From positions 1-3,583 of the IMG/VR virus record IMGVR_UViG_2648501787_000015: a DNA stretch of 3,583 nucleotides. One strand, written 5' to 3'. Origin of the DNA: a virus (taxonomy: Duplodnaviria > Heunggongvirae > Uroviricota > Caudoviricetes). Of the stretch, positions 1-3,583 are shown one piece after another; position 1 is the stretch's first letter, and every line of letters starts with the position of its first letter. The notes under the pieces are model-generated. The model did no database searches, had not been told where the DNA came from, and worked only from the letters and a program-made list of their open reading frames with translations. The position numbers and the translations under genes were made by a program.

Positions 1-786
1 CTGACATTAAGTGCGGGAAAGAAATATTCATCTTCGCCATCCCACATCAGGATTAATGGCTATTCATTTACAACCCCGTATCCTGATGAAGCAGCCAGTT
101 ATTACTATGAAATTTTCGCAACGCGAAACGAAAACGGCTATGTCTCAGCCAGTCTGTACTGCAACCGCTCATTAGCTGGAAATGCATCGTTTTATGTATC
201 AGATGACCGGACTGACAAAATTCAGGTGAGTATTGGTAGTGGTGACAATATTTTTTCATCGGGTGCATCCGGCACGTTAATGCTGGGTGATATGTACTGT
301 GGAACAGTGACATACGGTAGAAATAATAGTGCAGAACCCGCCCTGCTCGGAAGCATTGAGGTCAGATACAGCCCGGTAACGGCATTTACCGGTGGAAGCG
401 CCAAAAACTCACTGAATAAAGATATTGTCACGGGGCTGAACACCTCTGACAGCGAGGCCGGATATCTGATGCTCTCGCCGTCCCTGAATGCAGCACAGGC
501 CACGTTTGATGCGGTGGATAACAGCAACAGTGATGTTGTGGCTGTTATGGCCTCGGTCACTTACCGCGGTGCTGATGCCCCCAATAACTGCCTGGCCTGG
601 AAAGTGAAAAATGGCAGCCATGCAGGTGCAACGATTACAGAGAATGGCGTACAAAGCGACACAAACAGCTGGACGACTGTCTCACAGAGTTTTATGACCC
701 AACCAGGAGGGAGCACTCCCTTCGCTAAGGGTGAGCTGACTTTTACAGCGGAGTTGTTTAATCAGGCAAGGAGCGCCACTGAATAA
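1..786 (+). CDS. 3' portion of a gene whose start lies upstream of the window; S/T/G/N-rich protein, putative phage structural (receptor-binding or tail-fibre-associated) protein, family not recognised
   Basis: Frame 1 has no stop codon from base 1 to TAA at 784-786; the ORF track shows only the part after an internal GTG at 226. Composition is typical of beta-rich fibre or adhesin domains, and the gene sits immediately upstream of a tail-fibre gene. No specific family motif recognised by eye. Confidence 0.4.
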   Translation: MTLSAGKKYSSSPSHIRINGYSFTTPYPDEAASYYYEIFATRNENGYVSASLYCNRSLAGNASFYVSDDRTDKIQVSIGSGDNIFSSGASGTLMLGDMYCGTVTYGRNNSAEPALLGSIEVRYSPVTAFTGGSAKNSLNKDIVTGLNTSDSEAGYLMLSPSLNAAQATFDAVDNSNSDVVAVMASVTYRGADAPNNCLAWKVKNGSHAGATITENGVQSDTNSWTTVSQSFMTQPGGSTPFAKGELTFTAELFNQARSATE

Positions 787-1622: not shown

Positions 1623-2153
1623 ATGGAACTCAGAAATGTTACACGTTACCACCCTGAAGATATGCCTTATGGTGAAGGCATTCAGTATTTCCGCAGTGAA
1701 GACGGACAGGATTTTTATGAATCCATGGACAAATTCACGAAGAGATACAAATTGTGCATTCACCCTGAAAGCGGCGTGATTTATTCAATGGCGGAAGACG
1801 TGTCCCGTCTTTATCCGACAGGTTTCACCATTGTGGAAGTTGATGAACTGCCGGAAGGTTTTGGCATTGAAGCCAGTTGGTATTACAAAGACGGCGAAGT
1901 GCTGCCGGTTCCTGTTGATTATTCGCAACTGGCAGAAAAACAACGCCAGCATCTGCTGACTGAAGCAAAGGACGTCACCTCCGACTGGAAAACCGAGCTG
2001 GAGCTGGGCGTCATCAGTGATGACGACAAAGCTCGTCTTGCGCAGTGGATGGCGTATATCAAAGCGGTAAAAGCGCTGGATTTAAGCGCCGTTACTGATG
2101 AAGCCTCCCTTAATGCCATCAGCTGGCCGGAGCATCCCGATGCCGCAGCTTAA
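1623..2153 (+). CDS. tfa: Tail fibre assembly protein (chaperone), Tfa / Mu U / P2 G family
   Basis: Strong RBS AAGGAG at 1611-1616 with a 6-nt spacer before ATG 1623; the ORF-track start at 1587 has no RBS and lies inside the upstream gene. The C-terminal region W..ELELGVISDDDKARLAQWMAYIKAVKALDLS....ISWPEHP matches the conserved Tfa C-terminal signature (LGIIS, W..Y..V...D.S, WPE.P) recalled for Mu U, P2 G and lambda Tfa. Position immediately 3' of a tail-fibre gene is canonical. Confidence 0.8.
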   Translation: MELRNVTRYHPEDMPYGEGIQYFRSEDGQDFYESMDKFTKRYKLCIHPESGVIYSMAEDVSRLYPTGFTIVEVDELPEGFGIEASWYYKDGEVLPVPVDYSQLAEKQRQHLLTEAKDVTSDWKTELELGVISDDDKARLAQWMAYIKAVKALDLSAVTDEASLNAISWPEHPDAAA

Positions 2154-2610
2154 AGGTGTGATTAAAACGCCCACAGGAGAACCGCTGGGCAGCACAACCA
2201 TCACGCTGACCTCCCTGCACAACCGTGCAGGGATTCTGAAAGGTGTTTTCAGCCACGTCACTACACAGAGCGGGGAGTACGACTTCCCCGTCATGCCGGG
2301 CGTGTACAGCGTTCGCCTGACACAGAGTACACAACGCCTTTCAGAAATCGGTGTCATTCGTGTTTATGAAGATTCACAGGACGGTTCGCTTAACGATTTT
2401 TTGTCGGTGACAGAGGCAGATTTGCGCCCTGAATCTCTTAAAAAGTTCGAAGAGATTGCAATGCAGATACAAAAAAGTGCGGAAAGTGTCAGATTATATG
2501 CAGAGGAGGTGAAACGGGATTGCGCAATTACCCTCGAAAACAGAAAACAGACAGAGAGACTGCTGTCCCTGATAGCAGAGCCTCTTTCTCAGAGTGCCGC
2601 AGAAAGCTGA
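2140..2610 (+). CDS. Side-tail-fibre N-terminal (virion anchor) domain protein, 156 aa; either a stand-alone anchor module or a truncated stf remnant
   Basis: ATG at 2140 with GGAG at 2129-2132 (7-nt spacer); the start overlaps the tfa stop (2151-2153) by 14 nt. MPQLKGVIKTPTGEPLGSTTITL...GEYDFPVMPGVYSVRL...IGVIRVYEDSQDGSLNDFLSVTEADLRPESLKK parallels the lambda Stf N-terminus as I recall it (MAVKISGVLKDGTGKPV...ITVYEDSQPGTLNDFLCAMTEDDARPEVLRR). The ORF ends at TGA 2608-2610 without any fibre shaft or distal domain. Confidence 0.6.
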   Translation: MPQLKGVIKTPTGEPLGSTTITLTSLHNRAGILKGVFSHVTTQSGEYDFPVMPGVYSVRLTQSTQRLSEIGVIRVYEDSQDGSLNDFLSVTEADLRPESLKKFEEIAMQIQKSAESVRLYAEEVKRDCAITLENRKQTERLLSLIAEPLSQSAAES

Positions 2611-2648
2611 CTCAAAAAAGGTTAATAATTAAGCGTTTTGTATAGATT

Positions 2649-2684
2649 ATGACGATCGATACCATCATATCGATCGTCGTTTTA
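2649..2684 (+). terminator. Perfect 11-bp inverted repeat (GACGATCGATA / TATCGATCGTC, 6-nt loop) followed by GTTTTA; candidate intrinsic terminator for the tail-fibre operon and/or Dam-methylation-sensitive operator of the com-mom promoter
   Basis: Arms at 2651-2661 and 2668-2678 are exact reverse complements. Each arm carries a GATC (2654-2657 and 2672-2675) embedded in CGATCG. A short T-run follows at 2680-2683. It lies between the stf-N stop and the com start. Confidence 0.35.
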
Positions 2685-2751
2685 CATCATGTGTGGTTAA
2701 ATATCCCCAGCCCTCCGGGTGGTCGTATCTGGTTATTACACAGGGGGAATC

Positions 2752-2937
2752 ATGGACTCTGTTCGCTGTAAAAACTGCAATAAGTTACTGTTTAAAGGAG
2801 GTTTTAAGCATATAGAAATTAAATGCCCTCGCTGTAAACGTTACATTGTCATATCGAATGCCAAAGAGCATCCCACGGAGCTGTATTGTGGGAAAAGAGA
2901 AGAAATCACGCATTCTGACAAAACCCTGCGTTATTGA
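2752..2937 (+). CDS. com: Com, zinc-finger translational activator of mom (Mu Com homologue), 61 aa
   Basis: RBS AGGGGG at 2742-2747 before ATG 2752. The protein [61 protein letters not shown] is nearly collinear with phage Mu Com as I recall it ([62 protein letters not shown]), including the CxxC...CxxC zinc knuckle. Its 3' end overlaps the next gene in another frame, as in Mu. Confidence 0.9.
2872..2892 (+). promoter_or_regulatory. Translation-inhibition hairpin (TIS-like): CCCAC / GTGGG stem sequestering the GTG start of mom, with the GGAG Shine-Dalgarno in the loop
   Basis: CCCAC at 2872-2876 is the reverse complement of GTGGG at 2888-2892; t2871 and a2893 can add a sixth pair. The loop is GGAGCTGTATT (2877-2887). 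GTG at 2888 is in the mom frame. This is analogous to the Mu mom TIS hairpin opened by Com. Confidence 0.45.
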
Positions 2938-3583
2938 GTATGAAGGCCGGATTGTCGGCTATGGTTCAAAGGAGTTGCGCGTTGAAACCATATCCTGCTG
3001 GCTGGCCCGCACAATCATTCAGACAAAGCATTATTCCCGCCGTTTTGTGAATAACTCCTACCTGCATCTGGGCGTATTCAGCGGACGTGATCTGGTTGGC
3101 GTTCTTCAGTGGGGATATGCCCTTAATCCCAACTCAGGGCGTCGTGTCGTGCTTGAAACAGATAACCGGGGTTACATGGAACTGAACCGCATGTGGTTAC
3201 ACGACGACATGCCCCGCAATTCTGAATCACGGGCCATCAGCTACGCGCTGAAAACCATCAGGTTACTGTATCCGTCAGTGGAGTGGGTTCAGTCCTTTGC
3301 AGACGAACGCTGCGGGCGTGCTGGCGTGGTATATCAGGCGTCGAATTTTGATTTTATTGGCAGCCATGAAAGCACATTCTACGAACTGGACGGCGAGTGG
3401 TATCACGAGATAGCGATGAACGCGATTAAGCGCGGAGGTCAACGAGGCGAGTATTTGCGGGCTAATAAGGAACGGGCCGTGGTACACAAATTTAATCAAT
3501 ATCGCTACATCAGATTCCTGAACAAGCGTGCAAGAAAGCGCCTAAACACCAAACTATTCAGGGTTCAGCCATACCCGAAGTGA
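2888..3583 (+). CDS. mom: Mom-like DNA modification protein (adenine N6 acetamido/carbamoylmethyl modification, anti-restriction); start uncertain: GTG 2888 preferred, ATG 2858 or TTG 2846 possible
   Basis: Long ORF ending at TGA 3581-3583, overlapping the 3' end of com in a different frame exactly as mom overlaps com in Mu. GTG 2888 has GGAG 7 nt upstream and lies in a hairpin stem. It would give a 231-aa product, which matches my unverified recollection of Mu Mom length. Direct sequence identity to Mu Mom could not be checked from memory; the call rests mainly on the tight com linkage and architecture. Confidence 0.75.

Follow-up and report, generated by a model that had tools for sequence, protein, structure and literature searches.

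The open reading frame of 156 codons that follows a tail-fibre chaperone gene in the stretch of DNA analysed here (the window, 3,583 nucleotides) is very probably what a deletion has left of the 5' part of a second tail-fibre gene, in a Mu-like transposable prophage of a myovirus. It is termed the stf2 remnant. The sequence-only reading had listed such a remnant as the first of three options, and alleles coding for 310–1040 residues, each with a DUF4376 chaperone gene, were indeed found at exactly the same position in related prophages. The truncated state of stf2 was already known: RefSeq flags the copies in L001, L029 and L030 as a pseudogene, 'prophage tail fiber N-terminal domain-containing protein; incomplete; missing C-terminus'. 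The features of the window are gathered in Table 1.

Table 1. Coordinates of the features of the window and the evidence on which they were placed.
Feature	Position	Strand	Evidence
C-terminal half of a 352-aa protein, phrog_8291, function not assigned	226–786	+	PHROG E 1e-243; no Pfam match
Complete short tail-fibre gene, Mu gpS orthologue, 259 aa	829–1608	+	phrog_1833 E 1e-82; match to Mu/SfMu S
Tail-fibre assembly chaperone Tfa1	1623–2153	+	Pfam Caudo_TAP E 1.5e-21
Shine-Dalgarno GGAG of the stf2 remnant	2129–2132	+	Sequence; same in intact alleles
Probable truncated second tail-fibre gene (stf2 remnant, 156 aa)	2140–2610	+	PF08400 E 1e-25, AlphaFold2, Foldseek, RefSeq
Putative stf2 collar domain, residues ~1–91	2140–2412	+	Analogy with lambda Stf
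Putative stf2 linker, residues 92–101	2413–2442	+	Analogy with lambda Stf
Putative stf2 coiled-coil start, residues 102–156	2443–2607	+	Analogy with lambda Stf
Divergent, lower-GC 3' part of the stf2 remnant; mosaic breakpoint at ~2380	2380–2619	+	Identity, GC, nucleotide searches
Deletion junction: stop of the remnant, then last 2–3 codons and stop of the lost DUF4376 gene	2608–2626	+	Alignment with chaperone 3' ends of 14 loci
Conserved spacer 5' of com	2620–2751	+	83–90% identical in all full-length loci
Perfect palindrome GACGATCGATA-N6-TATCGATCGTC with two GATC sites	2651–2678	+	~75 nt upstream of com; kept in all related loci
com	2752–2937	+	Pfam Zn_ribbon_Com; 89% nt identity to Mu, SfMu, D108
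mom (RefSeq start at 2858)	2846–3583	+	Pfam Mom E 1.5e-75; Mu homology; annotation

The reading frame opens with an ATG at 2140 and closes with a TGA at 2608–2610. An in-frame ATG at 2098 would lengthen the product, but all homologues begin with MPQLKG, which corresponds to the ATG at 2140. This ATG lies 7 nt downstream of the GGAG and 14 nt within the 3' end of the Caudo_TAP gene (stop at 2151–2153), so that the good Shine-Dalgarno and the overlap noted beforehand are both real. They had been taken as a sign of an expressed rather than a decayed gene. Between the related loci (24 of 24), including those with an unrelated Tfa1, there is hardly any difference in the 25 nt upstream of the ATG or in the 18 nt that follow it. 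As the intact alleles share this start context, the signals are inherited and provide no argument for a retained function. A scan of the plus strand around the reading frame for promoters and terminators gave nothing above chance.

The protein matches PF08400 (phage_tail_N, prophage tail fibre N-terminal domain in Pfam) with an E-value of 1e-25 and 90.7 bits, well above the curated gathering threshold of 26.6 bits, with residues 4–127 covering positions 5–130 of the 134-position profile. Ten tail or tail-fibre families were matched in a PHROG search, each solely over its N-terminal ~130 positions, for profile lengths of 296–1210. With residues 1–94 of lambda Stf (PDB 9e7m), phmmer gave an E-value of 6e-11 and 37% identity. 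The similarity to the N-terminal region of lambda-type Stf was thus rightly recognized from the sequence. The idea that the product consists of the anchor and nothing else was too narrow, as the product continues past the collar domain with a linker and the first ~55 residues of a coiled coil. The Stf linker and coiled-coil start are still recognizable to about residue 126. In the Stf of Ur-lambda, the 12-copy collar that surrounds the gpV/gpM junction is built from residues 1–94, residues 92–101 are a flexible linker, and the coiled coil starts at residue 102 (PMC12617516).

The AlphaFold2 model (pLDDT 78) consists of a β-sandwich (residues 3–75), a short helix (84–87) and a long helix (97–155). 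The best match in the PDB found with Foldseek is the collar domain of Ur-lambda StfN (9e7m_Ta), with a TM-score of 0.81 and an r.m.s.d. of 2.2 Å over 91 columns, and further matches are the neck collar spike of the Vibrio myophage XM1 (7kjk_A3) and the neck fibre of cyanophage A-1(L) (8keg). The predicted fold corresponds to that of StfN, a six-stranded antiparallel β-sandwich of about 90 residues followed by a helix (PMC12617516). By analogy, all the docking parts would be kept. Pfam detected no Phage_fiber_2 repeats in the remnant, which has only 55 helical residues beyond the linker; such repeats and long C-terminal regions are present in full-length alleles of 639 and 1040 residues. Devoid of shaft repeats, distal shaft, receptor-binding tip and chaperone, the remnant is not a complete side tail fibre of the Stf type. 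When positions 2440–2625 were compared in all frames with the related loci by tblastx, only the in-frame Stf coiled-coil start was retrieved, so that no fragment of a chaperone or other gene is hidden there.

The window comes from a Mu-like transposable prophage, of which it forms the right end. Its closest complete genomes are 22 E. coli chromosomes with about 98.4% identity. In one of them, JNE21-009 (L001/L034), the Mu-like prophage is complete: it encodes a repressor, a Ner-like protein, the transposase, the B ATPase, Gam, gp16 and Mor, followed by lysis genes, a Mu-type head, a contractile tail, baseplate proteins gp44–48, the fibre genes, com and mom. This gene content, the com-mom pair at the right end and varied insertion sites that disrupt host genes characterize a Mu-like transposable prophage. 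As in Mu, baseplate genes gp47/gp48, an S-like fibre gene, its chaperone gene and com-mom are present, the homology of com-mom to Mu, SfMu and D108 (89% nucleotide identity) beginning at 2762. The name given to Mom is 'tRNA(Gly)-dependent adenine aminoacyltransferase' in newer RefSeq records and 'adenine methylcarbamoylation protein' in older ones. In JNE21-009, the Mu-like prophage sits inside a lambdoid prophage, just after the 808-residue PF08400 side-tail-fibre gene of the latter (L034 4217–6643; L001 23749–26611), and fragments of the lambdoid fibre and chaperone genes remain on the other side of the insertion.

The order of a chaperone gene before an stf gene had been regarded as non-canonical. 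This chaperone gene belongs instead to the preceding 259-residue fibre, of which residues 1–125 match the N-terminus of the tail fibre S of Mu and SfMu (38% identity, E 2e-18) and whose gene lies directly 3' of a baseplate wedge gene. Since the 259-residue protein is the orthologue of Mu gpS, and Tfa1 pairs with the S-like gene in every related locus, Tfa1 is the chaperone of the S-like fibre and the gene order is no anomaly. Judged from its sequence, the S-like fibre has its own N-terminal part for attachment to the baseplate. A check for a fibre N-terminus upstream of base 1 had also been advised. The reading frame at 226–786 does not provide one for stf2: it is half of the phrog_8291 gene, which begins upstream of the window (in frame with L001 19728–20786) and is context only, and the 259-residue fibre is complete with an N-terminus of its own. 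The S-like fibre gene of the window differs from that of L001 by a 30-nt indel. The distal part of the S-like fibre gene together with tfa1 (about 1194 to about 2073) forms an exchangeable cassette, an unrelated version of which (Tfa1 34% identical) is found between the same flanks in L006, L032 and L033. A conserved linker spans the 3'-terminal ~80 nt of tfa1 and the initial 240 nt of stf2.

Full-length stf2 alleles were located through their genome context, as a direct search for protein homologues, limited to 112 candidates, gave only short or partial proteins. At the same position in E. coli STEC383 (L002, fibre region 13343–15839), a 639-residue PF08400 protein is followed by a 188-residue DUF4376 chaperone, com and mom. 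A scan of IMG/VR yielded 23 related loci, 16 of which have complete reading frames of 310–1040 residues starting at the homologous ATG and two the 156-residue form. In 13 of the 16 full-length contigs, com-mom lies about 700 nt past the fibre stop, which leaves space for a chaperone gene. The first 240 nt of stf2 are 90% identical to the full-length alleles. Intact alleles, the search for which had been advised from the sequence, are therefore at hand in STEC383 and in the 16 IMG/VR frames; with full-length counterparts this common, the short form does not behave as a conserved independent gene, the observation that had been named as fatal to the remnant model.

In the intact relatives, the region from the baseplate genes to com-mom contains two consecutive fibre-chaperone pairs in the same orientation. 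A Mu S-like fibre and a Caudo_TAP chaperone make up the first; in the second, a DUF4376 chaperone accompanies a fibre whose collar domain is of the lambda-Stf type and whose shaft and tip are hypervariable. In L002 and L008–L026, the second pair stands where Mu has the invertible G segment and gin. Unlike Mu, the window has neither G segment nor gin. Among deposited phage genomes, no close relative of the stf2 N-domain was found, the best tblastn identity being 35%, and the literature searched for PF08400 or for a second fibre in Mu-like prophages yielded no description of such an arrangement.

The extent of the deletion was measured from the start of stf2 to the conserved palindrome 5' of com. 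This distance is 509 nt in the window versus 1926–3733 nt in 14 intact loci, and 1.4–3.2 kb are therefore missing. Homology on the right flank resumes at 2620–2626, which is the end of the DUF4376 gene. The downstream chaperone gene that would accompany a complete Stf-like fibre is thus absent, apart from the last two to three DUF4376 codons. The fibre body had been supposed to be replaced when the com-mom cassette was acquired. This is contradicted by the position of com-mom, which is native: in 14 related loci com-mom follows the intact fibre pair at this very position, and Mu itself has it at its right end. Likewise, a single junction expected between 2480 and 2750 gives way to a mosaic break at about 2380 and a deletion end at 2608–2626.

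By analogy with Mu, the spacer between the deletion and com is presumed to be the control region of the mom operon. In Mu, the mom operon is under Dam-methylation-dependent control. The palindrome of the window looks like such a control site, although its layout is unlike that of Mu. Across the window GATC is strongly depleted, with three sites against 13.7 ± 3.4 expected, and two of the three are inside the palindrome.

The 3' part of the remnant has a history of its own. Identity to eight full-length alleles is 0.87–1.0 up to 2379, falls abruptly to about 0.7 at 2380–2409 and reaches about 0.45 by 2500. The GC content of stf2 falls from 0.53–0.55 to 0.41–0.49 in this part, where that of the intact alleles is 0.53–0.65. 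From this composition and divergence, the last ~230 nt of the remnant stem from a divergent stf allele of lower GC content. The parent of the segment 2380–2619 was sought in several collections. In complete E. coli genomes, blastn retrieved only the 23 truncated copies described below. There was no match in the INPHARED phages, and in the IMG/VR loci the segment occurs only in the truncated forms L006 and L007. Among GTDB species representatives, none of 148 raw protein-pattern hits was confirmed and no exact 24-mer was found. The three matches in JGI metagenome contigs are all truncated forms. At the protein level, a HMMER search with residues 90–156 against 1.84 billion representatives had a best E-value of 2e-5 and gave nothing convincing. 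With no full-length gene for the segment 2380–2619 found in these collections, a replacement of a more complex kind than a simple deletion may have taken place.

The 3' part is virtually identical in all truncated copies, with a single synonymous change (codon 97) in one contig. The window differs from the other truncated copies by 12 codon changes, six synonymous and six not, all within codons 18–92, and these changes look like a recombination patch. Among the other truncated copies there are zero to two changes (0–1 synonymous, 0–2 non-synonymous), too little divergence for a selection test of the dN/dS type. The near identity of the 3' part and the confinement of the differences to codons 18–92 indicate a single truncation event. 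In complete E. coli genomes, the stf2 N-domain region is carried by 48 of 5426 and is truncated in 23 of the 48, many of the 23 being probably one clone.

The truncated prophages are found at at least four insertion sites, each breaking a host gene (the Rac/ompW region, fliM, an SDR oxidoreductase gene and rlmB), and the truncated stf2 is linked to two unrelated cassettes of S-fibre distal part and Tfa1. The variety of sites and the two cassettes indicate that losing the second fibre did not stop the lineage from infecting or transposing, nor from recombining. Some derivatives of the truncated stf2 carry frameshifts at runs of A (P0007, P0008/P0011 and L033), which may be further decay or sequencing errors. 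Other degraded forms of the second fibre pair arose independently (P0024, L028 and L035). In L035, a prophage integrated at tRNA-Ser, only a 3' fragment of the DUF4376 gene follows the Tfa gene (10157–10285); here, the second pair was lost in a separate event and from its other end.

In this lineage, one deletion of about 1.4–3.2 kb very probably took away the repeats of the shaft, the receptor-binding tip and the whole chaperone gene except its last two to three codons. The remnant has kept its inherited ribosome-binding site and its translational coupling to tfa1, and because of these it is probably still translated. Upon late expression, the product would be a collar domain with a linker and a helix of about 55 residues, a stub unable to bind a receptor. 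To judge from its continued spread, the phage would manage without the second fibre and depend on the S-like fibre.

A different view is that the stub is a functional, fibre-less collar protein maintained by selection, which would encircle the virion at its neck or tail and stabilize it or fill the docking site. Nothing is missing from the collar domain or the linker, and the helix is of sufficient length for trimerization. Residues 1–94 of the Ur-lambda protein suffice to make a 12-copy collar on the tube (PMC12617516), and the homologous collar spike of XM1 is said to reinforce the head-tail joint (PMC10457771). Although recombination has gone on around it, the frame has stayed open in 23 complete E. 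coli genomes and several metagenome contigs, and an open frame in all the complete genomes examined is also what a retained functional gene would show. However, all copies have one recent origin, from which an open frame is expected without selection; the open frame is equally well explained in this way and does not discriminate in favour of a retained collar. The expression signals are merely inherited. The frameshifted derivatives, with the reservation that sequencing errors are possible, and the independent degraded forms of the second pair also argue against selection. A retained function of the stub is therefore considered improbable. The same low likelihood is given to a variant by analogy with XM1 and A-1(L), in which the lambda-Stf-type collar of the stub would ring the neck and be kept for particle stability or assembly without fibres. 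If this were true, Mu-like phages would own an optional set of neck fibres besides the baseplate fibre.

The stub had also been suggested to be a separately encoded adaptor for a distal fibre module. Such a module could be supplied by another gene, for instance that of the 352-residue phrog_8291 protein. This gene and a 130-residue C-terminal extension of Mu gp48/YmfQ lie between the baseplate genes and the S-like fibre gene (L001 18730–20786), and may constitute an extra receptor-binding module. All truncated loci that reach far enough upstream contain both, and no full-length locus has either of them. This co-occurrence is explained by the shared descent of one backbone, and about 40 further E. 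coli genomes contain the phrog_8291 cassette (97%) without a PF08400 stub, as part of another prophage, one that is integrated at tRNA-Ser and has Mu-like tail genes. In all relatives, the PF08400 domain is covalently continuous with its own shaft and tip, and nothing fibre-like is present 3' of the reading frame, where 142 nt separate the stop from com. An adaptor is accordingly very unlikely.

Invertible fibre segments occur in Mu and P1, and the locus had been proposed to be rearranged or permuted (distal module, chaperone, anchor), which could make it a relic of a Mu G-like segment; this is refuted by the two complete co-oriented pairs found in the same order in more than 14 loci, and the 259-residue gene has its own Mu S-type N-terminus and no invertase gene or inverted fibre copy is present in the window, L001 or L002, so that next to no credence is left to it.

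The deletion remnant can be compared with several known systems. Like lambda Stf (Ur-lambda StfN, PDB 9e7m), it belongs to the PF08400 family and has a collar domain, a short linker and a coiled coil. Lambda Stf has 774 residues, belongs to a phage with a non-contractile tail and has its chaperone Tfa encoded after it, whereas only the first 156 residues are left in stf2, in a Mu-like contractile-tailed phage, with the chaperone gene deleted. The stf frameshift of lambda PaPa (orf-401/orf-314) is a further parallel, a naturally disabled side-fibre gene whose 5' part is still open. There, all the DNA is kept, in contrast to the loss of 1.4–3.2 kb including the chaperone gene in stf2. Lambda PaPa stays infective through its other receptor-binding protein (PMC12617516).

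In the collar spike of XM1 (gp40, PDB 7kjk) and the neck fibre of A-1(L) (8keg), too, an Ig-like domain of about 100 residues at the N-terminus leads into a helix. The relationship to the remnant is distant, with 24% identity, a phmmer E-value of 0.0013 and a Foldseek E-value of 6e-6. The 100-residue N-domain of XM1 gp40 binds neck proteins (PMC10457771), and in both phages this domain hangs trimeric fibres on the neck of a contractile-tailed virion. By analogy, the intact stf2 fibre would most plausibly dock at the neck of the Mu-like virion.

The remnant is a case of ordinary prophage gene decay, a common outcome in prophage fibre loci, and matters little alone. The only mildly novel angle, outside the remnant itself, is the second fibre with a lambda-type collar in Mu-like prophages. 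Three by-products result from the analysis. The gene order is corrected to two fibre-chaperone pairs instead of a rotated locus. A second fibre anchored by a lambda-type collar is recognized in a group of Mu-like prophages of E. coli. As spread continued after the loss of this fibre, it would be dispensable for at least some hosts.
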